From the IMG/VR virus record IMGVR_UViG_3300027847_001698: a stretch of 64,000 nt of DNA; one strand, given 5' to 3'. Numbering within the stretch: the first letter of the stretch is position 1; each line of letters starts with the position of its first letter. This document shows, piece by piece, positions 1 through 51,203 of the stretch. The stretch comes from a virus. Its lineage: Duplodnaviria; Caudoviricetes. The notes beneath the pieces were generated by a model that was not told the origin of the DNA, ran no database searches, and was given only the letters and a program-made list of their open reading frames with translations. The position numbers and the translations under genes are program-made.

Positions 1-238
1 CTGAATAATCTAATATTATATCTTTGAATGCATTCTGTGCGTCTGTAAAAATTATATTCTTGTCATGATTTAGATCGCCAAGAATATCAATATTTTTTAT
101 CTTCTCTTTTCGTGCGTAATCACAAACCTTTCTTATCAATGAAATAAGATCGCTTAATCTTTTAGGTAGTCCATCTTCTTGGATATTAGAATCTCTATAC
201 CAAGACAGATGTAAATCCGCTAAGGCAATTCTTTTCAT
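1..238 (-). CDS. Mre11/SbcD (T4 gp47-like) metallophosphoesterase nuclease, N-terminal part; runs off the window edge
   Basis: Not in the ORF track; translated by hand from ATG at 238: MKRIALADLHLSWYRD...IDILGDLNHDK, with the calcineurin-like motifs DxH and GDxxH. AGGAG lies upstream (256-260). Confidence 0.75.
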   Translation of the reverse strand, partial: MKRIALADLHLSWYRDSNIQEDGLPKRLSDLISLIRKVCDYARKEKIKNIDILGDLNHDKNIIFTDAQNAFKDIILDYS

Positions 239-294
239 AATCTAAAAAATTTAAACTCCTTTTTGTTTATTCTAAAAGTCGTACAATCTTATCT

Positions 295-1161
295 TTACAA
301 CAGTGTTAGAATCTCAGTGTCATCGTCATCATCTGCACCGTGTTGTATTCCCGCAGAATTTACAGCCTCTTCTTGGCTAATGACATCATGATCCATCAAT
401 AATACATAATCTTGCAAACAAGCACTTCCATCTTCCATTGATTCCATTGCTTGTTCTAATCTTTCTCTCAACATATCAGCGGGATCTACAATAGGAATGT
501 TCATTCCTAGAAAATCTTCACGGTTTCCTACCATTCCTGTCTGATGCTTTACTTGGCCATGGGAATTATAGTTATAATGTCCAGTATGAACAACTGCTTT
601 TTGTTGATAGACCTTTTTACTAACTTTCTCAAGATCAAGATCAAACTTTTTAGTATTTATAATATTAATATCCAACGGTAGTTGAATTCTACCAACTGGA
701 CTATTAATATTAATTATACCTGAATGAATAATTCTATTCACAAACAATAGAGAAAATTCATGATTAACATTGATATACTCATCATCGGTGCCTGAGAATT
801 TTGTACAACCAGAAGGATGTCTATGAATTACTCCATTGAACCCCGCTGGTGCTTCTTCTTTAAAATCTATAGTTGCAGCAGTTACTTCTTGTTCAGGAAG
901 CATCCACTTATTTTCCAGCATTAATATGCCATCGACAACCTTACCCTTTAAATACAATGCAAATTCAACAGAAGAATCTGGAAGATCATATTGGATTTGT
1001 AACATGACTTCCTGTAAATCACTTGGAATTACGACATCTACACTGTTGATTATTTGTAGAGCAGGATTTTCATTTTTCCAAACTACTTCCCCCGAACTCT
1101 TTTTTATTTTCATGTCTGCTTTAGACGTATCTACTGATTCATCCTTTATGGTCGTTAGCAT
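295..1161 (-). CDS. JAB/JAMM (MPN+) metallo-isopeptidase
   Basis: H113-R-H115-P-x6-S123-x2-D126 (HRHPSGCTKFSGTD) has canonical JAMM spacing; upstream EFALYL and PEQEVT motifs are typical of prokaryotic JAB proteins; acidic C-terminal tail. Confidence 0.85.
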   Translation of the reverse strand: MLTTIKDESVDTSKADMKIKKSSGEVVWKNENPALQIINSVDVVIPSDLQEVMLQIQYDLPDSSVEFALYLKGKVVDGILMLENKWMLPEQEVTAATIDFKEEAPAGFNGVIHRHPSGCTKFSGTDDEYINVNHEFSLLFVNRIIHSGIININSPVGRIQLPLDINIINTKKFDLDLEKVSKKVYQQKAVVHTGHYNYNSHGQVKHQTGMVGNREDFLGMNIPIVDPADMLRERLEQAMESMEDGSACLQDYVLLMDHDVISQEEAVNSAGIQHGADDDDDTEILTLL

Positions 1162-1909
1162 TGTACACTTCCTCTGTTACCGGTTGTTGATCTACATTCT
1201 GGCCCAAATAAATTCCTTCTAATAATCGTCCTGTATCAAATGTTATAAGTTTATTAAATAAGTTATCTTTATCATTGCATGAAAAACTTCCATCGTCAAT
1301 TAATGAGTATTTTGGCATTAGAATGTGATTACATACCAAATTTGCAACTAATTGAGCAGAGCAAACAAAAGAAGGAACTATATCATAATTCCCCCGTGCA
1401 CTCGTACCCATTACAGTTGTATGTCTTGGATTTCCGTCTATTGTAACAGACAATCCATCATAACCTAATTTCCAAACCTTTGTATGTTCTGAAAACTGCT
1501 TTATATCTTTAAAGATATTATCTCTACAATCTATAACTACCTCTGGGTAACTCCCCTTCCCCTTAAGTACTTCCAATGAGTTTTCATCATACTTTTCATT
1601 ATATATAACTATATCAATATCAATTCTTCTTTCAAGGATAAGCTCTAATACTACATCTGTTTTATTTCTTCCAATATCACATATTCTAAATAACGTTCTA
1701 TTCAGATTAGTATTTTCAATTGTATCCGAATCGTACATAACTAGTTTCTTAATTTGGCCAGTTAACGCCAAATTAAGAGCAACCCATGAACCTATTCCGC
1801 CAAGTCCAATTACTAGTGCACAATTATATTCTCTAAGATTTAATGATCGTTGTCTGTCACGTACTTCTTCTCCCCGATCATTAACTATATTATAAATTGA
1901 TTGTGTCAT
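1139..1909 (-). CDS. ThiF/MoeB/E1-like adenylating enzyme
   Basis: Rossmann motif VIGLGGIG, then YDSDTIENTNLNR, GRNKT and VIDCRD. No CxxC zinc motifs seen. Confidence 0.9.
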   Translation of the reverse strand: MTQSIYNIVNDRGEEVRDRQRSLNLREYNCALVIGLGGIGSWVALNLALTGQIKKLVMYDSDTIENTNLNRTLFRICDIGRNKTDVVLELILERRIDIDIVIYNEKYDENSLEVLKGKGSYPEVVIDCRDNIFKDIKQFSEHTKVWKLGYDGLSVTIDGNPRHTTVMGTSARGNYDIVPSFVCSAQLVANLVCNHILMPKYSLIDDGSFSCNDKDNLFNKLITFDTGRLLEGIYLGQNVDQQPVTEEVYNANDHKG

Positions 1910-1915
1910 TATAAA

Positions 1916-4039
1916 TCACTCGTTTGTTGAGTTTGTTGAATATCTAATGTCCGGTGAATTATCTATATATTGTATACAATCTGACGCGGATACTATTTTA
2001 TCCTTTATATTCTTATATGCCTCCTTTTCCCAATCTTTAGGTATTATGTCAGATTCTTTAGTCTTCTTTTTGGGTGGAGTTAATAACAATCCAAACTTTT
2101 TCCTTACTGTTTCTGAGAGAAATCCCCATGCCCTACAAATGACATCTCCACCTAATAATGAAAGATTCATGATCACCTTTTCAAAAGTTTCAGGATCATT
2201 AAAAAGCATTGGTCGGGTATATGAATTTTTACAATAGAAATATAAAGGTTTATCACTATCGTGGGAACCATCAGGCAAAAATACACCTATAACAGTTACA
2301 CCATTAGGATGTACCCAAGTTAATCTTCTATCAGAGTTTAAGATGAAAGATGATGAAACAGTTTCGGCATTACGCATTTGATCTAAAATTCGTATATATA
2401 CAGATAATTCTTCAACATCAATTTTATCATCTATAGCCTCTTTAATTACGTCTACATCTATTAATTTGCCGTCCTTAATAATTTCAACTTCATCTTTTCC
2501 ATTTATTGTTCTTGAGGGAGACAGCCCTCTATTATCATCCTTTTCATCATCTATTATTAAATCTCCTGCACCAATAGCAATCATTTTAGATTTAGATGAT
2601 TTTTTAGATACTTTAAGAAATTCTGATTCTGATTTGCATTTAACCTTTAATATTTTGTGATAATACGATTCATTATAAGCACTATCATAATTTAGAATCT
2701 GTAATAACGATTCCATTTTTATTAAATGCTCTTCAATTTTTTCCGTGGGTCCAGAAAATTTAATATTTCCTAAATCACCTAAGCATACTGAACCATCAGA
2801 AGATACATTTGGATGGGTGGATTCTGTAAAAGAAAATCCATCTCCATTAATATATAACCATTTTACTCTAAACATTCTTAACTCTTTAGGAATTATTTTA
2901 CAAACACCATCTCTAAAAAATCGATCAGGTAATATATCTATCTTCTTTTTCCATAACAAATTAGATCTATAATTACTACTAAATCGTTCATGGGTAGCTA
3001 CTTCCCATCCATATTTAGTTAACAGACCAGATATAGTCAATCCTCTATGAAACGATTGTTGTGAGCTGTCTCGATTTTCATTTGAAGCTCGTTCTAATAC
3101 TTTGGTTAATAAACTTGCATATATTTCAGATTTCCCTGATTGATAGATTGTGTCCCACTCTGCGGTAGCCATAGTGCGTTTTAATTCTTTCAAAATCCCT
3201 TCGGAATCTAAAGTAAAGTCTGCATCTGATGGGGAATATTTACATTCCTCTAATCTCTTTATAAGTTTACATATAGATTCATCTTTTCCGTCAGCTTCCC
3301 AATGTTTAATATCTATATCATGAAGTCTATTATGAACGAATGTAATTCGATCAAGAATGTTTTCTAGTAATACATTAACCTTTTCTACATCTCTTGATCG
3401 TCCACTTCTCATCAAATATCTTAATACTGGCCATTTTATATAAGTGGTTCCATCCACACACATAAACCCAACTAAAACTGAATTAGTTCCAACAAAGAAG
3501 ACCTCTGATACTAAACTATCTTTGACATCACAAATATCTTGTAATAATCTTGAATTTACAACTGAAGTAAGATTTGCAAATCCTGGATTTCTAAATCTCA
3601 TATTTGGACATATATTGACACATAATTTTCTAAATGTTACATCGGAATCATTTAAAGGAGTTCCTAAATATTTAGAAAATGACGTAGCCATACTTGCATG
3701 TGAAACTCTAGGATTACATGTAATATATTTTAAAAGATCACTAAGTCCAAAGTTTGTTATAACTAACTTGTGATTCATCTTTAATGACTTACCATATTCA
3801 TCCAAGGTTAGCTGTTCGTCATAAACTAGACTATATGAATTCAACCTATGGGTGTCACCTGGATCGTCAGATATGACATCTCTTACTACTACATTATTTA
3901 CCAAATCTAAATATTTATCATTTACCAAAAGTTTAGAAAGACATTTATTTAGCTTTTCTATAAATCTTCGTTCAAATGTATAATCTCTATGGTTATCTGG
4001 GGTAAACAAACGAGAAAGGGTTTCTTGTGTTCTGCTCAT
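1916..4039 (-). CDS. Large protein with a central prokaryotic E2 (UBC-like) domain
   Basis: STHPNVSSDGSVCLGDL (H409-P-N411, C419) matches the E2 signature HPN-x7-C (compare YHPNINSNGSICLDIL of Ubc4/5). Adjacent to E1 and JAB genes. Confidence 0.7.
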   Translation of the reverse strand: MSRTQETLSRLFTPDNHRDYTFERRFIEKLNKCLSKLLVNDKYLDLVNNVVVRDVISDDPGDTHRLNSYSLVYDEQLTLDEYGKSLKMNHKLVITNFGLSDLLKYITCNPRVSHASMATSFSKYLGTPLNDSDVTFRKLCVNICPNMRFRNPGFANLTSVVNSRLLQDICDVKDSLVSEVFFVGTNSVLVGFMCVDGTTYIKWPVLRYLMRSGRSRDVEKVNVLLENILDRITFVHNRLHDIDIKHWEADGKDESICKLIKRLEECKYSPSDADFTLDSEGILKELKRTMATAEWDTIYQSGKSEIYASLLTKVLERASNENRDSSQQSFHRGLTISGLLTKYGWEVATHERFSSNYRSNLLWKKKIDILPDRFFRDGVCKIIPKELRMFRVKWLYINGDGFSFTESTHPNVSSDGSVCLGDLGNIKFSGPTEKIEEHLIKMESLLQILNYDSAYNESYYHKILKVKCKSESEFLKVSKKSSKSKMIAIGAGDLIIDDEKDDNRGLSPSRTINGKDEVEIIKDGKLIDVDVIKEAIDDKIDVEELSVYIRILDQMRNAETVSSSFILNSDRRLTWVHPNGVTVIGVFLPDGSHDSDKPLYFYCKNSYTRPMLFNDPETFEKVIMNLSLLGGDVICRAWGFLSETVRKKFGLLLTPPKKKTKESDIIPKDWEKEAYKNIKDKIVSASDCIQYIDNSPDIRYSTNSTNE

Positions 4040-4046
4040 ATTAAAT

Positions 4047-4080
4047 AAAAAAGGTGGCTAGAGATTTATCCCTAACCACC
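4047..4080 (-). terminator. Intrinsic terminator-like hairpin between the Ubl-like gene and the E2-like gene
   Basis: Minus strand reads GGTGGTTAGGGAT-AA-ATCTCTAGCCACC followed by TTTTTT. Confidence 0.65.
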
Positions 4081-4101
4081 CTCCTCTATTTATATAATTG
4101 C

Positions 4102-4710
4102 TTACGCAGCTTTATTTACTTTGCCGACTTTCAACGAAAGAATACGACCTTCACCCAGAACGATATCAGTCTTACCGGAAATGTCGGTATTAGTTTTGAC
4201 ATCAGAAACAGCAAACGAGGCCATTCCTTGTTCAGTGGCATAAGTACTAATCGCGGAGAGGGTGTCATTTGCGTCCTCAACCTTGAACTTTGGTTCGCCG
4301 TTGATTACCAAAAGATACGCACCGTCAGCGAGAGACACCTTATAACCTTTCGGAAATGCCTTGTTTGGCGGGCAGTGAACATGAACACGTCCACTCTTTT
4401 TCTTTGCTGTAAACCCAGACAATGTATCAGCAGTCAATGAAGCAGGAGAACCAACCTTGACCATGGGCTTCTTAGATGCTTTGATAGTTGTCACTCCGCT
4501 GGTTCCACTTCCTGCAGAATACGTCACAAATCGACCACCATTATAAACAGAAAGCGTTCCATTTTCTACTAATGTGGTCAGTTCTTCCTTCAGCGATGCT
4601 GATGCCTTTGATGTAAAAAGTACATCCTTGGATATTCTGGTTGCGGTTGAGTTTTCGTTTTTCTTGACATACAACACGACTTTATTACTTACACTTTTTG
4701 TTAGTGACAT
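4102..4710 (-). CDS. Putative winged-helix + ubiquitin-like (beta-grasp) fusion protein
   Basis: aa ~6-66 have a wHTH pattern (helix-helix-helix ending LVENGTL, then a beta wing); a Lys/Ser-rich linker follows; aa ~131-202 have a beta-beta-alpha-beta-beta-beta pattern ending in an exposed small-residue tail KVNKAA. Directly upstream of E2-E1-JAB and visibly more GC-rich than its neighbours. Confidence 0.55.
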   Translation of the reverse strand: MSLTKSVSNKVVLYVKKNENSTATRISKDVLFTSKASASLKEELTTLVENGTLSVYNGGRFVTYSAGSGTSGVTTIKASKKPMVKVGSPASLTADTLSGFTAKKKSGRVHVHCPPNKAFPKGYKVSLADGAYLLVINGEPKFKVEDANDTLSAISTYATEQGMASFAVSDVKTNTDISGKTDIVLGEGRILSLKVGKVNKAA

Positions 4711-4744
4711 AAGGGTATAATTCCTTGGTTAAAAATAAAGAATC

Positions 4745-6166
4745 CTATTTTAATATCTTTTCTTCTATTTGCCAATTCTTTTCTGTATAGAATCCAATCC
4801 GGTACTTTGCCCGATTGATCAAATTATCATCTCCTATATCGACTAAATCTATTACGACTGGTTGTTGTTTATCTGGATGAGATCTAACAACCCGCCCAAC
4901 AGCCTGTTCTAAATTAGAAACAGGAGTAGCCAATATTAAACAATCTAATATTTCTTTATTAGTACCGTCTCTAGCACTTCCATAAGTACTAAAAACTAAT
5001 CTACGCTGTAGATGAGCATCACGCTCATTCTTCGATCTTGGGATGAAGAAACCTACTTCTTCTTTGTTTTTACATGCCTGCGAGGCATGATCTAAAATTT
5101 TAATTCTATCTGCCAAAAATAATAAGTGTCTGGTCGACTTAGACACTTCCATGACCAATTTTTTTATAGCTTTTTTATACGGCTCGGACTTGACTAACAA
5201 ACTCAAATATCTAGCCGTGTCAAAAAACGGTTTAATATTGTTATCCCGATCGTACTTTGTAAGATGTGTAATGTAATTTTTATGATTTTTCATAACACCA
5301 TGATCAAATTTCAATAAGATCACTTTCGGTGCCATAGTGTCTATACCCGAGGAAACCGGTACGTATACCTGTCCAAGATGTTTATATATTATATCTGTAT
5401 TTCCATCTAATCTACTTGGAGTAGCAGACAAACCATAGATTCGTTTAGATGGAATCCAAATCGAAGTTCTAGAAAACTGTTCAGCACTTACCGAAGTATG
5501 ACATTCATCCCATATAGCAATTCCAATTTGTGCATCATTCAATACCTTCTTCATTAGTTCGGGGGGCTTCCGCTTAACCAAACTACAAAATGTTTGAACA
5601 GTTGTGATTATTATATCCTTTTGCAAATCTTCCTCAAATGAAGAAGACCTAAGCCTAGAGATATTATCTTCCGATATATCTGTATGCTCTAAAAACTTAT
5701 CGACCCATTGACTAGCTAAAGAGTCCTTATGTACAAATATTATTGATTTTTTTCCAATTGTACATATCGAGTGGATGCTTACTACTGTCTTTCCTTCTCC
5801 AGGACTTAAACATAGTATACCATTAGTATTCGTTTCAAACCACTTGATCGACTCTTTCTGTCTTTCATTTCTTGGGACGACCTTGGAGGTTATACTTATA
5901 TCCTTCCCTACAATACTTCTATCTGTTATCTGAAACATTGCAGGGAGTTCATAAAAACGTGGAATCATTAATTCGCGAGTTGACTTATCTGTATCGTAAT
6001 ATTTTCTAATATCAACATTTGGAGCATCACTATCTGCCGTTTGTTGATATGACCTGGATTGTCTAGTCAAATCTCGAATTATTCTTGCAAACCATTCCTT
6101 GTCCTTATTGGAATCAACTGGAATTCGAATTGCAGAATCTTTTATGAGAGTTTGACTACATCCCAT
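4745..6166 (-). CDS. Superfamily 2 DNA helicase (UvsW/ResIII-like)
   Basis: Walker A LSPGEGKT, DECH, SATP, QAVGRVVR. Start placed at the ATG at 6166, which overlaps the queD stop; the track ORF extends to 6193. Confidence 0.85.
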   Translation of the reverse strand: MGCSQTLIKDSAIRIPVDSNKDKEWFARIIRDLTRQSRSYQQTADSDAPNVDIRKYYDTDKSTRELMIPRFYELPAMFQITDRSIVGKDISITSKVVPRNERQKESIKWFETNTNGILCLSPGEGKTVVSIHSICTIGKKSIIFVHKDSLASQWVDKFLEHTDISEDNISRLRSSSFEEDLQKDIIITTVQTFCSLVKRKPPELMKKVLNDAQIGIAIWDECHTSVSAEQFSRTSIWIPSKRIYGLSATPSRLDGNTDIIYKHLGQVYVPVSSGIDTMAPKVILLKFDHGVMKNHKNYITHLTKYDRDNNIKPFFDTARYLSLLVKSEPYKKAIKKLVMEVSKSTRHLLFLADRIKILDHASQACKNKEEVGFFIPRSKNERDAHLQRRLVFSTYGSARDGTNKEILDCLILATPVSNLEQAVGRVVRSHPDKQQPVVIDLVDIGDDNLINRAKYRIGFYTEKNWQIEEKILK

Positions 6167-6602
6167 ATTGCGCCCACGAATTAGGAGTTTCAAACAACTT
6201 TACATTGATTAATTCTAATCCTGAAGTTGGCGGTAAATTGTCGTTGACTTGTTCAAAGCACCACCTTGATAATTCTTCTGCTGTTGGGATAAATGGAACT
6301 TTTATAAGATTCCATGTGTCCTTAAATGGTTCAAACATTTCAGCTATCTCTTTGTCATTCTCGTAATAAATAAATCCATGATCTAATACATCATGTACAT
6401 ATGTTGTCATTACATCTTTCAAATCCCCAAAATCAATAACCATTCCTTGTTCAGATGAGCCTGATTCGCTATTTAGATATCCTGAAACTGTACATTCTAG
6501 TCTATATCTATGACCATGGGGATTTCTACATTTACTTTTATGATTAGGGACTCTGTGACCTGCATCAAATTCTATAATTTTAGTTATTCTAATCATCTTC
6601 AC
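6156..6602 (-). CDS. queD: 6-carboxy-5,6,7,8-tetrahydropterin synthase
   Basis: FDAGHR, CRNPHGHRY, VIDFGDLK, LDHG, PTAEEL and ETPNSWA are characteristic QueD/PTPS motifs. Confidence 0.92.
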   Translation of the reverse strand: MKMIRITKIIEFDAGHRVPNHKSKCRNPHGHRYRLECTVSGYLNSESGSSEQGMVIDFGDLKDVMTTYVHDVLDHGFIYYENDKEIAEMFEPFKDTWNLIKVPFIPTAEELSRWCFEQVNDNLPPTSGLELINVKLFETPNSWAQYGM

Positions 6603-8369: not shown

Positions 8370-10171
8370 ACTAACTTCCTTTTTTCCTCTGACTTTAACA
8401 TCAAGTCAAAAATACCATTACAATCTTTAGGGTAAGCAATCCTAACCAACCTTCTAGTTTTCTCATCTAATAAGCAAACTTGTAATTGGTCTGGATTCAT
8501 TTCACCTAAACCCTTATATCTCTGGATCTTACAGCTAGTATGTTTTTTCTTAAATACGTCTACTTCTTCTTGGGTGTATAACGGGACAAATTTTCCTTTT
8601 AATGTTGAACCGTATAACGGAAGAACTGCTTTATATATGTATCCATTTCTCAATAAATCAGGAACTAGTTTTAACAACACCGTCATTAATAATACAGAAA
8701 TATGTGCGCCATCTGCATCTGCATCTGTTGACACAATAAACTTCCCATATCTAATACCTTCTATATCAAAATCTGGAACATGCCCTGTACCTAAAGCATT
8801 TATCATTTCAATGATTTCTTTATTCTTAAGAAAATCCTTTTTATCATCTGCTATATTTGGTATCTTACCTCTAAGGGGCAATACGGCATGAATCCTAGGA
8901 TTTCTACACATCAACAATGATCCACCAGCCGATTGACCTTCTAATACAAAAAGTTCAGACTCAGAAACATTATGTGTTGTACAATCTCGTAATTTAGAAT
9001 CAACTACTGAATTGAGTCTAGTTACTTGCTTTCCAGTTTTTACAATCTTCTTGCTTGAGTCTTTTTTCTTTCTATAGGAAACAAAAAATTCAAGAAGTTG
9101 ATTTCTAACATCAGGATTTGCAGCTAATTCCTTTTTGAATATAGCTTCAGCTTTAGAATATAGATGAGCTAATTTAGTCCTCGGAGTTGATAACTTTTCC
9201 TTTGTTTGAGAACTATATGATGGCTCGTATAACATTATAGATGTATAACATCTAAATCCAAGCAACGAATCAGTTTTATTAAATTCTATCTTCTCTTTCT
9301 TGGCTTCATTCTCTAATACATTTCTAATAATATCATTTGTGCTATTTACGTGTCCACCATGATTAACACTTAGTATATTAACACATCCTAAATGTTTAGC
9401 AGTTACCGATCCTTCTAACTCCCAACAAAATCGAATATCAAGGGTTTCATCTTTTTGTGAAGTGGAGATATTAAATACTTTACTAATAGAATCTTCACTT
9501 CCACCTAACACATCCTCTTTAAAGAAAGAGTCTAAATCACAATCTATAACTTCTTTCTTTTTATCTACTATAAGTATTAACTTAAGATCATTAAGATGAA
9601 TTGATGCTACTCTAAGTCTCGCCCTAATATCATCTAAATTAAAAATCAATCCTTCAAAGTATTTTTTACTGGGCTTGAATTTTATTTGAGTTGCAAATGG
9701 CCGTTTAGCTGAATCAAAATCTTCTTCTGTATGTTTTGCTACTTCTGCATCTTCAAATCTATAAAAGACATGTTTATCATCTCGATAAACTTCTACTTCC
9801 ATAAAATCACTTAATGCAGTAACAGCAACAATACCAATACCATGAAGACCAGATGCTATCTTGTATACACCACTTTCGCCTTTAGAAAATTTTCCACCAG
9901 AAAACAACTGAGTGGCAATCGTAGGAATGGTGTCATTCTCAAATGGAATTCCTCTTCCATTATCTGCAACGGTGACAGTATGTTTCTTACTATCAATTTG
10001 CACTCCTATAATATCGGAATAGCCACCTTGTGCTTCATCTAATGAATTATCTAATAGCTCATATATCAAATGGTTCGGACATGTCGTATCACCGATATAC
10101 ATTCCCGGATGCTTTCTAATATGATCTAATTGCTCTAATACTTGAATACTTTCGTGTGTATAATCAGACAT
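8366..10171 (-). CDS. gyrB: Type IIA topoisomerase subunit B (GyrB/ParE-like)
   Basis: HIRKHPGMYIG, ELLDNSLDE, DNGRGIP, SGLHGIG (GHKL ATPase); EGQSAGG, PLRGKIPN, DADADG (TOPRIM); RYKGLGEM. Confidence 0.93.
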   Translation of the reverse strand: MSDYTHESIQVLEQLDHIRKHPGMYIGDTTCPNHLIYELLDNSLDEAQGGYSDIIGVQIDSKKHTVTVADNGRGIPFENDTIPTIATQLFSGGKFSKGESGVYKIASGLHGIGIVAVTALSDFMEVEVYRDDKHVFYRFEDAEVAKHTEEDFDSAKRPFATQIKFKPSKKYFEGLIFNLDDIRARLRVASIHLNDLKLILIVDKKKEVIDCDLDSFFKEDVLGGSEDSISKVFNISTSQKDETLDIRFCWELEGSVTAKHLGCVNILSVNHGGHVNSTNDIIRNVLENEAKKEKIEFNKTDSLLGFRCYTSIMLYEPSYSSQTKEKLSTPRTKLAHLYSKAEAIFKKELAANPDVRNQLLEFFVSYRKKKDSSKKIVKTGKQVTRLNSVVDSKLRDCTTHNVSESELFVLEGQSAGGSLLMCRNPRIHAVLPLRGKIPNIADDKKDFLKNKEIIEMINALGTGHVPDFDIEGIRYGKFIVSTDADADGAHISVLLMTVLLKLVPDLLRNGYIYKAVLPLYGSTLKGKFVPLYTQEEVDVFKKKHTSCKIQRYKGLGEMNPDQLQVCLLDEKTRRLVRIAYPKDCNGIFDLMLKSEEKRKLV

Positions 10172-10340
10172 ATTATGTACTAAAACTATTTCTGCAAATC
10201 ATCTGAATCTCCTTAATAAATTTCCTTCAATTCTTATTTCTTATACACTATATTAATCCCATACATATGACTGTTCAACTAACAAGAATTTATTATTCAT
10301 CTTTTTTTACACCAGATCCAATTATCTATATTTAACCATA

Positions 10341-10371
10341 CCCCTATCAAATTAGTTATATTCGATAGGGG
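10341..10371 (-). terminator. Stem-loop downstream of the lipoprotein gene
   Basis: CCCCTATC...GATAGGGG inverted repeat, but no clear U-tract, so terminator function is uncertain. Confidence 0.35.
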
Positions 10372-10395
10372 ACATGTGGTTAATCTTCCAATTCA

Positions 10396-10686
10396 TCAAT
10401 TTTCAGTTTCGGGGACTGAATCGTTCTCACCAATTAAACCATCTATTATTTTATCAACTCCTTTATTGATAATGCCAGCAGCATCTTTCCTTGTAACGTT
10501 AGTATCTGAATTTCGGATAACAACAAATACGTCCTCATTCTGTCTACCTTCGTAAGTAAATTTTCTTACTGGGTCACCAGGAGCATCTAAACTAAGAGTT
10601 CCAAACCCTGGAAGAGTTGTTGTTAAACAGCCACTTGTTAAAAACAAACAACCAATCAACCCCACTACAAATATTACCTTTTTCAT
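10396..10686 (-). CDS. Putative lipoprotein
   Basis: MKK + hydrophobic stretch + lipobox LTSGC. Confidence 0.6.
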   Translation of the reverse strand: MKKVIFVVGLIGCLFLTSGCLTTTLPGFGTLSLDAPGDPVRKFTYEGRQNEDVFVVIRNSDTNVTRKDAAGIINKGVDKIIDGLIGENDSVPETEN

Positions 10687-10753
10687 AAAACGTCTCCCTA
10701 TATCTTTTGACTATTCTTTATAGTTATATGTTCTTTAAATTTTAAATCTAACT

Positions 10754-11806
10754 TTAAGTAACTAAATCTGCATTTGCAAGATATGTCTGACCATCATGAT
10801 CAACAATCTGTTCGCTGAAATCACCACTCATCATTGGACAAGTCCAATTACAACCTTTACAATAATGTTTATAGTCATACTTGATAGCATCTAGTAACTT
10901 GTCAGTGAAAACTCCGTCTGATGAAATGATATCATCTACATCTTTAATTAATGGAGATGCAACTCCCTTAACTCTAAGACACAATCTAAAACTTCCATCT
11001 GGTTCTATACTAACATTATGGAGATCTTTATTTAATGTACATTTCATCTTACTAGGGAGATATTTATATAACTCATCTAGTAATCCGGGAATATGTACTA
11101 GTAATTCCCCACTATCTGCTCCTGCTTTCAACTCATCAAAAATATCTCTGATCTCTTGATCCTGTGGGAGTAGAACTTCTGCTCCAACATTTGAGAAATC
11201 ATAATAAGGAGTTTTTTGATCATCTACAGCAGTTATTGAACTATAGATTCCTTTATCTGTTAATTCCTTTACCATCGTCAAGATGTAGGGAATTGATTCT
11301 TTCATTATGGTGATCTCTGCAACTACATCATCCGATATGCCATCTTTTTTCATAACAGCAAGATTCTCTAATCCCCATCTAGACTTCTTTGCAATATCAT
11401 CATTTCTACCAGGAATGAATGCTACAGGATCAACTGATGAAGTGAATCCTTTAAACTTTCCATACTTCTCATATACCTGATAAATCTTCTTTTTAGCTGC
11501 TGGAGTATTATTTGATATGACCGTGTAATTCATTTTGGTTTCATTAAGATATTTAATGATTCCTGGAAATGATTTTACAATTGTTGGCTCTCCGCCATAA
11601 ATTATGAGAAATACATGAGGATTATTTGCTCTAAGTCTTTCGAATATAGGAATCCATCCATCTGCATCTAATTCAGCTTTATGATAAGCTCTCATTAAAG
11701 GATATTCTTCTGGCATATCCTCATAATCTTTTACAATATTACAATACGAACATGCCAAGTTACAATGTCTTGTAATAAGGATATTTGCTATCCATACTTT
11801 ATTCAT
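10754..11806 (-). CDS. Radical SAM protein with C-terminal Cys cluster (SPASM/Twitch-like)
   Basis: CNLACSYC (CxxxCxxC) and GGEP; C-terminal cysteines KCTL, RLCL, CKGCNWTC. Confidence 0.88.
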   Translation of the reverse strand: MNKVWIANILITRHCNLACSYCNIVKDYEDMPEEYPLMRAYHKAELDADGWIPIFERLRANNPHVFLIIYGGEPTIVKSFPGIIKYLNETKMNYTVISNNTPAAKKKIYQVYEKYGKFKGFTSSVDPVAFIPGRNDDIAKKSRWGLENLAVMKKDGISDDVVAEITIMKESIPYILTMVKELTDKGIYSSITAVDDQKTPYYDFSNVGAEVLLPQDQEIRDIFDELKAGADSGELLVHIPGLLDELYKYLPSKMKCTLNKDLHNVSIEPDGSFRLCLRVKGVASPLIKDVDDIISSDGVFTDKLLDAIKYDYKHYCKGCNWTCPMMSGDFSEQIVDHDGQTYLANADLVT

Positions 11807-11810
11807 ACTA

Positions 11811-12059
11811 TCATCCTAATTCTGTTCTAGTATTGCGTCCGTCTACAATATGAAGTTCACCCATCATATCTTTAATAAAACTTGTTACATCATTGTGATA
11901 TATTCGTTGATTTGTCTTCGAATCAACAACAGTTACACTTGAAAAATCAAGGAGATATTCTAATTTTTGTTTCTTCTGTTGTACAATAAGTCGACTAATA
12001 CAAGGTATCGGAACCGACAGTGGAGGATCATCTTTAACTCTAGCATTTTTTCTTGCCAT
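11811..12059 (-). CDS. Hypothetical protein
   Basis: Co-oriented, tightly packed ORF. Confidence 0.55.
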   Translation of the reverse strand: MARKNARVKDDPPLSVPIPCISRLIVQQKKQKLEYLLDFSSVTVVDSKTNQRIYHNDVTSFIKDMMGELHIVDGRNTRTELG

Positions 12060-12122
12060 AAAATTATCACCTTGTTAACAAATTAATTAATCTTATTAAT
12101 AGGCCATATGTGATCTAAACTA

Positions 12123-12971
12123 TTATAAACCCAAATCAAGTTCCACATCAAGTTCATCTACAACTGAATCAACAACATCCGTTGAATTATCCTCAAATGT
12201 AGGAGCATCATCGTCAACAGATGTCTGCCTTGAATGTCCCCCACTGCCACCATCAACATTGCCAGATAAATCAAACTGCAACTTAAATGGATCTTGCCAT
12301 TTAGACGCCTTCTGGACTATTGATTCTACTGACTTGTCTGGTAACTTCTTGTCTAATGAAAACCCAAATACACTTTTCTTGCCATAATCACTATCAACTG
12401 AATTACGTGTAACTTTAGTTATGAAACGTCTAGGTGTAATGACCGACTCTTCAAACGCATCAGTTCCATCAGATAAATTATCTAACTCCTTAGCCCTCTC
12501 TGAAATTTGATTCAAGAATTCAATAACTGGTCCTACTTTAAGACCATTACACTTGAAAAATATCAAAGCTGCACGTTCGGGATCAGTTTTATCTAGAATT
12601 GGCTTTCCTGCACTATTAACCGCTGCACCAGCTATAACATAATAACATCTAGCTTCCGGAGGATAATTTGGATCCGAATCTGGATCTGCCGAAAAATAAG
12701 TTAGTTTATCTCTATCTCCTAACTTCGTATATGCAGCTCTATACTTGTGTATGAATAACACAATAAAACTAACTTCATCTTCATTTCTAAATACATATTT
12801 TTCATCTACATCTCTAGAATCAAACATACCCGGCCATATTGAATGTAACTTGTGTAATTGTTGTTCATCTCTTTCCTGGCCTGAAATGAAACATGAAATA
12901 AACGGTCCGGACTCTTTTCTTGTAGCAATCGACGTTTCAGCCAGATGCCCATATTCTTCTGCTTTAATCAT
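12123..12971 (-). CDS. Putative single-stranded DNA-binding protein
   Basis: Beta-rich core, Gly linker and a long acidic tail ending in hydrophobic residues (DELDVELDLGL), the usual layout of phage SSBs. Function is inferred only. Confidence 0.45.
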   Translation of the reverse strand: MIKAEEYGHLAETSIATRKESGPFISCFISGQERDEQQLHKLHSIWPGMFDSRDVDEKYVFRNEDEVSFIVLFIHKYRAAYTKLGDRDKLTYFSADPDSDPNYPPEARCYYVIAGAAVNSAGKPILDKTDPERAALIFFKCNGLKVGPVIEFLNQISERAKELDNLSDGTDAFEESVITPRRFITKVTRNSVDSDYGKKSVFGFSLDKKLPDKSVESIVQKASKWQDPFKLQFDLSGNVDGGSGGHSRQTSVDDDAPTFEDNSTDVVDSVVDELDVELDLGL

Positions 12972-50666: not shown

Positions 50667-51203
50667 CTACTCTGGTGACTTCATCAACTTGATTCCGAAC
50701 ACTTGTTGGGCATCGGTGATGAACGAGGTCACCGCAGCATCCCGTGCACTCAAATGCAAAGCACGAAGTCTATCAATTTGATCATCGATTTGATGGAGGG
50801 CTGTTGCGTATTGTGTCGGCGTTGTCGCTGCCTCCACATCATGCTGAAGCATGTCGAATTCAGTACGACGTGACTTCGGAGGTGTGGGGGTAGATGACGG
50901 AGTAGCCACCACCATCTCCTCCACATCCAAATCAATCAGATGCGAAACATCCATATGACGTTTTCCCTTGATCCGGTTCTTTCCCTTGTTTCCTTTCTTC
51001 CACCTTTGCCTATCAATGGTGGTTATCCCGAGGATGTTGCAAATATTCGTCGACCGCATCGTGGGATATATGGTCGCGATTGCATTGTACTGCCCCAAAA
51101 GAATTCCCTTCTGATCTTCGGACCACATCCGGGAAATTCCTGAACGCTTCTTCTTCATACTGATCGGACCCAAAATAAGGTCCTGTTGGACGTTGATGGT
51201 CAT
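50667..51203 (-). CDS. Hypothetical protein, GC-rich relative to the genome
   Basis: GAGAGGGA RBS, basic N-terminal half, helical C-terminal half; ends at a strong terminator. Confidence 0.7.
   Translation of the reverse strand: MTINVQQDLILGPISMKKKRSGISRMWSEDQKGILLGQYNAIATIYPTMRSTNICNILGITTIDRQRWKKGNKGKNRIKGKRHMDVSHLIDLDVEEMVVATPSSTPTPPKSRRTEFDMLQHDVEAATTPTQYATALHQIDDQIDRLRALHLSARDAAVTSFITDAQQVFGIKLMKSPE

Follow-up and report, generated by a model that had tools for sequence, protein, structure and literature searches.

A winged helix–ubiquitin-like fusion protein as the candidate modifier of a putative E1–E2–JAMM conjugation cassette in a marine phage

Ubiquitin-like conjugation in prokaryotes has so far been shown only as bacterial anti-phage defence, in the Cap2 branch of cyclic oligonucleotide-based antiphage signaling systems (CBASS), in Bil systems and probably in Bub systems. 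A gene at positions 4102–4710 of a 64,000-nucleotide stretch of the virus record IMGVR_UViG_3300027847_001698 (Duplodnaviria; Caudoviricetes), hereafter the window, raises the question of whether a phage can deploy such chemistry itself. The open reading frame (ORF) lies on the minus strand, begins with ATG and encodes a 202-residue protein, P0001, whose last residues, GKVNKAA, are followed immediately by the stop codon. An initial annotation, made from the nucleotide sequence, had proposed a modifier candidate in which an N-terminal winged helix is fused to a ubiquitin-like (Ubl) domain that has a free Ala-Ala C-terminus in place of -GG and lacks a pro-peptide; the ORF and, with corrections to the linker and to the extent of the C-terminal domain, its described features are confirmed, and the VNKAA sequence directly before the stop codon bears out the free terminus. 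We regard it as probable, while allowing for real doubt, that the protein is the modifier of a phage-encoded E1–E2–JAMM conjugation cascade, activated at its C-terminal Ala.

The C-terminal tail of the protein is the first line of evidence. When 1.8 billion cluster representatives were scanned exhaustively with HMMER, 50 matches emerged, approximately 47 of which are true homologues; P0036, P0042 and P0048 were dropped as repetitive and unrelated. Word-indexed protein searches, started either from the single protein or from the alignment, retrieved only the protein itself or two already-known members, and megablast and tblastn against deposited phage genomes gave no match. Variability of the C-terminus among homologues was looked for as a reason to abandon the modifier proposal; instead, 44 of the 47 aligned homologues end in N/D-K/R-[AG]-[AG] with zero to three variable residues appended, and in this 47-sequence alignment the motif is conserved far above chance expectation. 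Among the 44 motif-bearing tails the terminal pair is AA in 31, AG in nine, GG in three and GA in one; no residue follows the motif in 29, a single one (C, A, M, R, K, F or I) in 13, two in one and three in one. Asn137, Lys35, Asn199 and Lys200 are the best-conserved features of the alignment, the last two being kept in at least 90% of sequences, with Asp substituting for Asn199 in two homologues. His directly precedes Asn199 in 31 of the 44 tails, a position (198) occupied by Val in P0001. Conservation ends exactly after the second small residue, which marks the presumed mature end. Relative to the canonical Gly(-Gly) terminus of Ubls, the family conserves the placement of two small residues, and not Gly. 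The tail pattern looks like that of a Ubl with its mature end at the second small residue and with occasional short pro-peptides that would be trimmed. Several homologues carry two winged helices in tandem, and the 76-residue homologue P0038 consists of the beta-grasp core alone and ends in VNKAA.

Structure prediction speaks to the fold behind the tail. AlphaFold2 reached a predicted local distance difference test (pLDDT) score of 33 from the single sequence and a mean pLDDT of 87 with the 47-sequence alignment, with residues 100–200 of the full-length protein modelled at pLDDT >90. Residues 1–66 form a winged helix in this model, in agreement with the winged helix-turn-helix-like N-terminal domain of the initial annotation. 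The linker at residues 67–99 had been called Lys-rich; with Lys at only 4 of its 33 positions this description is doubtful, and the abundant residues are Ser, Gly and Thr. Across residues 100–202, three extra strands are followed by a strand (132–136), a second strand (139–144), a helix (147–160), a third strand (166–170), a short strand, a 3-10 turn and a final strand (190–197). The evidence that the second part of this region has a beta-grasp topology (beta-beta-alpha-beta-beta-3-10-beta) is good but not decisive; a non-beta-grasp fold was sought with AlphaFold2 and Foldseek, and the model displayed a beta-grasp topology. The postulated ~70-residue Ubl-like domain thereby finds its counterpart in a beta-grasp core of ~75 residues, while the C-terminal domain as a whole spans ~100 residues, with the core as its second part. 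Foldseek searches of the PDB matched the PB1 domain of NBR1 (probabilities 0.98 and 0.91) and the parkin Ubl (probability 0.87, TM score 0.49), with weak E-values of 0.04–0.1, and beta-grasp domains were the sole matches in the PDB other than winged helices. Matches in the VIA-align wide search, the AFDB clusters, Atlas and BFVD were dominated by the winged helix, and for this reason these searches were uninformative on the C-terminal domain.

The N-terminal domain possesses the three helices and beta-hairpin wing of the winged-helix class. Its best structural matches are the MarR, ArsR and IclR repressors, and it also matches Z-alpha well; it has no Pfam match and no sequence-family membership. 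Z-alpha domains are recognised by an Asn and a Tyr in helix 3 and by a Pro-Pro-x-Trp sequence in the wing, and inspection revealed neither the helix-3 Asn/Tyr pair nor the wing Pro-Pro-x-Trp. The Lys35 that opens helix 3 is invariant (44/44); at position 60, the tip of the wing, 79% of the sequences have a basic residue; Tyr64 is retained by 40 of 42; and the pI of the domain is 9.6. These features fit the backbone contacts that a nucleic-acid-binding winged helix would make. Winged helices also mediate protein contacts; for the winged helix of the Ubl fusion, binding to nucleic acid is the most likely function on the strength of the model and the conserved residues.

The second line of evidence is the company that the gene keeps. 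Downstream of the Ubl gene, on the same strand, follow a terminator and then genes for an E2-like protein, an E1 and a JAMM candidate (Table 1). The motif HPNVSSDGSVC of the 707-residue E2-like protein matches the UBC signature and is conserved in the related loci L002/L003, L009 and L012; the Pfam UQ_con match (E 2.9e-4, 20.9 bits) falls under the 27-bit curated cut-off, and E2 matches in the PDB have E-values of 0.013–0.7. Around this E2 domain, the protein carries ~330 extra N-terminal and ~270 extra C-terminal residues. The E1 matches Uba1, MccB, PaaA, ThiF and Cap2 in the PDB and ThiF and MoeB best in NCBIfam, the latter all under cut-off; the best PDB matches of the E1 family profile are PaaA and MccB, limited to the shared Rossmann part and with E-values close to that of ThiF. 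GxGGxG, NLNR and DCRD are invariant motifs of the E1. Across 60 E1 homologues (alignment A4), the sole invariant Cys resides in the DCRD metal-site motif and Cys183 is present in 35, while Tyr175, Pro179 and Ser180 are invariant; this Cys pattern hints at a transfer that proceeds without an E1 thioester, perhaps as in the Tyr-using Bub E1s. The E1 clade comprises at least 158 clusters at 90% identity, all metagenomic, with many on contigs of 50–230 kb. For the JAMM candidate, the motif is conserved in the L005 and L013 orthologues and an upstream Glu occurs in an E-x4-L-x-G context; Pfam, PADLOC and PDB sequence searches gave no match, so that the assignment is made from the motif.

The order Ubl, E2-like, E1 (230–260 residues) and JAMM is found in the window, in L009 and L010/L012 (IMG/VR contigs) and in the distant L005, a locus from an NCBI metagenome-assembled genome that has other upstream genes and in which identity to the window's proteins is ~25–29% for the Ubl, 31% for the E1 and 46% for the JAMM protein. 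Partial cassette order is seen in L002/L003, and the locus of P0114 was judged by matching gene sizes. The E1 gene lies two genes downstream of the Ubl gene in the window, L009, L010/L012, L005, L003 and L013. The search for related loci returned none with the E1 alone as query and two with the narrower alignment A3. Absence of linkage to E1, E2 and JAB genes was looked for as a ground for rejection, and linkage was observed in every locus with enough flanking DNA. On the 122-kb contig L013, which encodes a divergent member of the E1 clade, the slot of the Ubl gene is occupied by a gene for a 78-residue protein, P0173, that has no winged helix, ends in QVNKAG and precedes the E2-like, E1 and JAMM genes. 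P0173 was missed by the hidden Markov model of the family; an hhalign comparison with the family profile (E 0.0034) aligned the helix, the last strands and the tail end to end. Because P0173 retains the tail in the absence of the winged helix, the tail motif tracks the E1 clade and not the winged helix.

GC-richer codons, a terminator right after the gene and high expression had also been proposed. The GC content at third codon positions (GC3) of the Ubl gene is 0.381, relative to a mean of 0.230 for the 49 ORFs of the window (z 2.5, rank 2), and the terminator-like hairpin and T-run are indeed present directly behind the gene. Contigs from RNA libraries cover the Ubl gene in all four seawater metatranscriptome assemblies, examples being 4123–5329, 4103–4253, 4258–4538, 4250–4552, 4561–4741, 4148–4307 and 4323–4484, while the 2.1-kb E2 gene is represented by only two 151-nucleotide RNA contigs, both from one of the four runs. 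No RNA-library contig in the four assemblies crosses the terminator, and the contigs end at 4103–4148, which is consistent with an abundant Ubl transcript that stops at the terminator. The contigs do not establish abundance, because assembled contigs give no ranking of expression and DNA may be present in RNA libraries. The codon bias and the terminator proposed for the gene are thus found, and the high expression deduced from them gains some support from the GC3 rank, the terminator and the recovery of contigs in all four RNA runs. Seawater metagenomes of at least 12 studies (2017–2025) contain DNA near-identical to positions 1–6600 of the window, and six metatranscriptome runs contain parts of this DNA; it follows that the phage is both common and active in the sea. 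By a wide margin, the top GC3 value of the window (0.556, with a mean of 0.23) belongs to a separate 178-residue ORF (50667–51203, minus strand). This ORF gave no PHROG match, its N-terminal half is basic and its middle is rich in Pro, Thr and Ser; strong expression or a recent acquisition may account for its composition.

Taking as observed the domain architecture, the conservation of the tail, the linkage of the genes and the presence of the Ubl gene in RNA libraries, we infer the chemical steps, the targets and the binding to nucleic acid as follows. The small E1 would bind the beta-grasp domain and adenylate the free C-terminal Ala202; in homologues with one to three residues beyond N-K-[AG]-[AG], the JAMM protease would trim first. 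The acyl group would then pass to Cys419 of the E2 domain, either directly from the adenylate or via a residue of the E1 crossover loop, two routes suggested by the lack in the E1 family of an invariant Cys outside DCRD and by the invariance of Tyr175 and Ser180. With no separate E3, the large E2 protein would pick the targets and transfer the tag to their amino groups, and the JAMM protease would reverse the modification. The winged helix would ride as cargo, such that tagged proteins or chains of tags gain a DNA- or RNA-binding module. The suggestion of the initial annotation that conjugation might tether target proteins to DNA, or might polymerise a DNA-coating protein, is reasonable but speculative. 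Its fuller form, a phage “DNA-binding ubiquitin”, we put forward tentatively and with considerable reserve: the phage's own E1 and E2 may attach the winged helix via Ala-Ala to proteins of the phage or of its host, or may link tags into chains, whereby the tagged proteins would be held on or removed from nucleic acid, for instance at the replication and transcription machinery encoded by the flanking genes.

Several observations weigh against a conjugated modifier. The beta-grasp call is based on one full-length AlphaFold2 model and on Foldseek E-values in the range given above, and the Ubl identity was not recognised by Pfam, PHROGs, PADLOC, NCBIfam or PDB sequence searches, with either the protein or a profile of the C-terminal domain as query. 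The E1 has no invariant catalytic Cys. Three short homologues of the 47, P0039, P0043 and P0047, are devoid of the tail motif, and 31 of the 44 motif-bearing tails, being N/D-K/R-A-A, contain no Gly at all. In Type II Bil systems, ATP cannot bind while a terminal Ala is present, and this Ala has to be cut off so that Gly becomes exposed (PMC10557695). Set beside this is the precedent of Cap2, which conjugates cGAS-like enzymes via a terminal Gly or Ala: the Enterobacter cloacae enzyme ends in Ala, and a Gly-to-Ala mutant still forms the thioester (PMC10097602). A predicted complex of the E1 and the C-terminal domain scored 0.53, with the best of three controls at 0.01, contact agreement of at least 91% and partner pLDDT of at least 84. 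In calibration, 58 of 80 solved complexes passed the mark, as did 2 of 110 mismatched pairs, and passing scores of 0.60 or below were obtained for only 7 of the 80 solved complexes and for both of the passing mismatches; the prediction accordingly counts as weak support, a small addition to an E1–Ubl pairing that was likely beforehand. The modifier proposal of the initial annotation nevertheless stands, in that neither a variable C-terminus nor unlinked homologues nor a different fold was encountered.

Table 1. Positions of the Ubl gene, its domains and the neighbouring features (window coordinates unless a locus is named)
Feature	Position	Strand	Basis or remark
Winged helix–Ubl fusion gene P0001, 202 aa, stop codon included	4102..4710	minus	ORF and translation; ~47 true homologues; AlphaFold2 pLDDT 87
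Winged helix-turn-helix domain, aa 1-66	4513..4710	minus	
Disordered Ser/Gly/Thr/Lys linker, aa 67-99	4414..4512	minus	pLDDT ~50; composition; length varies among homologues
C-terminal domain, aa 100-202: three-strand extension and predicted beta-grasp core (~aa 128-202)	4105..4413	minus	AlphaFold2 order of strands and helix; Foldseek; stand-alone homologue P0038 equals core
C-terminal tail Asn-Lys-Ala-Ala, aa 199-202, presumed activation site	4105..4116	minus	Family conservation
Terminator-like hairpin and T-run between Ubl and E2 genes	4047..4086	minus	18 pairs; best of 5 sites in 12 kb
707-aa protein with internal UBC-type E2 domain	1916..4039	minus	HPN-x7-Cys at aa 409-419 (window 2783-2815)
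ThiF-type E1 adenylating enzyme, 256 aa	1139..1909	minus	Pfam ThiF 5e-22
JAMM/JAB-type metalloprotease candidate, 288 aa	295..1161	minus	His113-x-His115-x7-Ser123-x2-Asp126 at window 784-825
Mre11/SbcD-like phosphoesterase and Rad50/SbcC-like ATPase	L011:12600-13607 and 10087-12603		Own genome; immediately follow the JAMM gene; the first extends into window 2-238

The IMG/VR virus record from which the window is taken measures 193.5 kb, carries the label provirus and is estimated to be 61% complete. The genes surrounding the cassette encode a family-B DNA polymerase, a ribonucleotide reductase, a UvsX-like recombinase, helicases, topoisomerase II, QueD and a radical SAM protein; beyond the start of the window lie the Mre11/Rad50-like genes and a two-subunit RNA polymerase. 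Mre11/Rad50-like genes directly after the cassette are likewise present in L009, L012 and the P0114 locus, and this recurrence indicates that the cassette is fixed inside a recombination and replication block. Directly upstream of the Ubl gene, a DUF2786/DUF7168 protein takes the place of the helicase in L012 (4603–5463), L008 (2665–3483) and the P0114 locus. At L002:524-4293, in a related phage, the gene for the large subunit of topoisomerase II is in two parts, separated by a weak intein-splicing match and a DUF7487 ORF; these point to an intein or a homing element, which the window's copy does not have. QueD is encoded at 6156–6602 (minus strand) and a radical SAM protein at 10754–11806 of the window, FolE (GTP cyclohydrolase I) and a QueC-like protein elsewhere in the same genome (G000:C1:76718-77260 and 68099-68713); their sequences suggest a 7-deazaguanine pathway, and a TGT/DpdA-type transglycosylase was not found in the 193 kb of this record, itself estimated at 61% of the genome. 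A second, paralogous mini-module occurs ~4–5.7 kb past the window start in the own genome (L011:7697-9220) and at L012:14942-16357 and L009:13812-15377. It comprises genes for an E1-like protein (175–190 residues), a small protein (84–110 residues) and an E2-like protein (203–254 residues) with HPN/HPH-x8-9-Cys; the small proteins end in small residues (PLTGTA, PVTGAA and PIPSSA), and the 92-residue one showed no similarity to the Ubl family profile in hhalign.

How well do other explanations account for these observations? The protein could bind DNA to regulate the operon or other phage genes, with the beta-grasp part as a non-conjugated docking or sensing domain and with something else as the substrate of the E1 and E2; integral UBL domains occur in many eukaryotic proteins. 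The resemblance of the winged helix to the MarR, ArsR and IclR repressors speaks for this, as does the place of the Ubl gene at the head of the cassette with a terminator between it and the rest, and HTH regulators often precede Bub and CBASS operons (PMC11601596). A regulator leaves unexplained, however, why the terminus of two small residues is conserved and why it is followed by variable extensions of one to three residues; forms that have no winged helix, P0173 in the same slot of L013 and P0038, keep the tail, the cassette offers no other Ubl candidate, and the tandem winged helices of some homologues fit cargo or avidity equally well. We consider a regulator unlikely. The conjugation chemistry may alternatively be as we propose and its role different, a Bil-like defence carried by a phage or prophage that disables the proteins of competing phages (superinfection exclusion). 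The characterised relatives, namely Bil, CBASS Cap2/Cap3 and probably Bub, act in anti-phage immunity (PMC11601603, PMC10557695), and IMG/VR labels the record a provirus. The cassette, though, is embedded between helicase and topoisomerase II genes on one side and Mre11/Rad50 and RNA polymerase genes on the other, its place is kept in related phages whereas defence islands are usually variable, and PADLOC models match nothing beyond a generic Cap2-type E1 similarity. We consider a defence role unlikely too, if slightly less so than a regulator.

Two further explanations alter the chemistry itself. The protein might be a ThiS/MoaD-type sulfur carrier, on which the ThiF-like E1 would generate a C-terminal thiocarboxylate that serves a thio- or deazapurine-type modification of nucleic acid; the JAMM protease would trim the carrier, a well-established activity exemplified by the CysO/Mec+ and QbsE/QbsD pairs. 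Such a carrier would suit an E1 that is small, single-domain and ThiF-type, with sub-cut-off NCBIfam matches to ThiF and MoeB and no invariant catalytic Cys, and would suit the QueD and radical SAM genes nearby and the FolE and QueC-like genes in the genome. It is hard to square with a conserved UBC-type HPN-x7-Cys E2 in the cassette, since sulfur-carrier systems have no E2; the cassette showed neither a rhodanese nor a cysteine desulfurase nor a sulfurtransferase, L005 and L010/L012 show no linkage to QueD, and the winged-helix fusion has no obvious role in sulfur transfer. We judge a sulfur carrier very unlikely. Slightly more improbable still, in our estimation, is that Asn199 is the reactive residue, either through an intein-like Asn cyclisation that frees Lys-Ala-Ala or through MccB/PaaA-type E1 chemistry on Asn after trimming. 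The near-invariance of Asn199, the His before it in 31 of 44 tails, the weak Pfam Intein_splicing matches of six family members (best E 0.0048) and the rank of PaaA and MccB as top PDB matches of the E1 family profile are what recommend it. Against these stand the equal conservation of Lys200 and the two small residues, with conservation ending right after them, the Val in place of His at position 198 of P0001, the weakness of the intein matches, and the restriction of the PaaA and MccB matches to the shared Rossmann part at E-values near that of ThiF. A modifier activated at its terminal Ala remains the reading we prefer.

If this reading is true, a complete cassette in the replication region of widespread marine phages would give the virus the same chemistry that bacteria use against phages. 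Should the more tentative “DNA-binding ubiquitin” form hold, it would be the first ubiquitin-like conjugation system that serves a bacteriophage's own programme, and the first Ubl family in which alanine is the normal reactive residue. An Ala-Ala rather than Gly-Gly terminus bears on the selection of substrates by E1 active sites, and a cargo of the nucleic-acid-binding type suggests that tagging would alter the location of a protein instead of marking it for destruction. Trypsin is expected to cut after Lys200 and to leave an Ala-Ala remnant on modified lysines; targets should therefore be findable by standard proteomics, in the manner of di-Gly remnants. The system would be of interest to research on prokaryotic ubiquitination and on phage–host conflict. 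We found no published description of a phage-encoded E1–E2–JAB–Ubl cassette in a literature coverage that is incomplete, and an earlier description is possible.

Among known systems, the sulfur-carrier pairs CysO/Mec+ and QbsE/QbsD share with the phage cassette a small ThiF-type E1, a beta-grasp protein with one to three extra C-terminal residues in some members and an adjacent JAMM gene, a combination that is well established for ThiF/MoeB-type E1s (Iyer et al. 2006, PMC1779556). These pairs end in Gly-Gly and have neither an E2 nor protein conjugation, in contrast to the UBC-type E2 and the N-K-[AG]-[AG] tail described here. Bub systems (formerly 6E/DUF6527) resemble the cassette in their small homodimer-type E1 without a catalytic Cys and in the diverse architecture of their Ubls. 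The Bub E1 relies on a Tyr in its crossover loop and on oxyester chemistry (PMC11601596); Tyr175 here lies in the corresponding part of the protein and may be the counterpart of Tyr370 of BubCD. The Bub E2 has a Ser/His pair and forms oxyester intermediates, while the phage E2-like protein keeps HPN-x7-Cys, and the Ubl–E2 or E2–E1 fusions and the DUF6527 serine protease of Bub were not seen here, the neighbouring genes giving no DUF6527 match.

In CBASS, the E1 domains of Cap2 are similar to the phage E1 (PADLOC E 7e-13, and the Cap2 matches in the PDB), a terminal Ala is tolerated (PMC10097602), and the JAB protease Cap3 reverses the conjugation. Cap2 is an E2–E1 fusion, whereas the phage encodes its E1 and its E2 separately, and neither a CD-NTase nor an effector gene turned up in the cassette. 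The substrate of Cap2 is an enzyme without a beta-grasp domain, of which only the last residue is conserved; here a predicted beta-grasp domain bears a tail conserved over four residues. Closest in gene content are the Bil systems (BilABCD, Types I and II), which like the phage cassette have separate Ubl, E2, JAB/JAMM and E1 genes and no E3, and in which the JAMM protease is likewise expected to trim a short C-terminal extension (PMC11601603, PMC10557695); PADLOC gave no match for the phage Ubl, E2 and JAMM proteins. Bil Ubls can bear varied N-terminal domains; the ones reported from Bil and Bub comprise N/G-rich tails, coiled coils and DUF1508 (PMC11601603), with no winged helix among them, unlike the Ubl described here. 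The Gly of Bil Ubls is universally conserved (PMC10557695), whereas the phage tails are mostly Ala-Ala, and the multi-domain E1 of Bil (PMC11601596) contrasts with a phage E1 of 256 residues that has one adenylation domain and an invariant Cys only in DCRD. Lastly, Bil is a bacterial defence, and the phage cassette is set among the replication genes of a virus.

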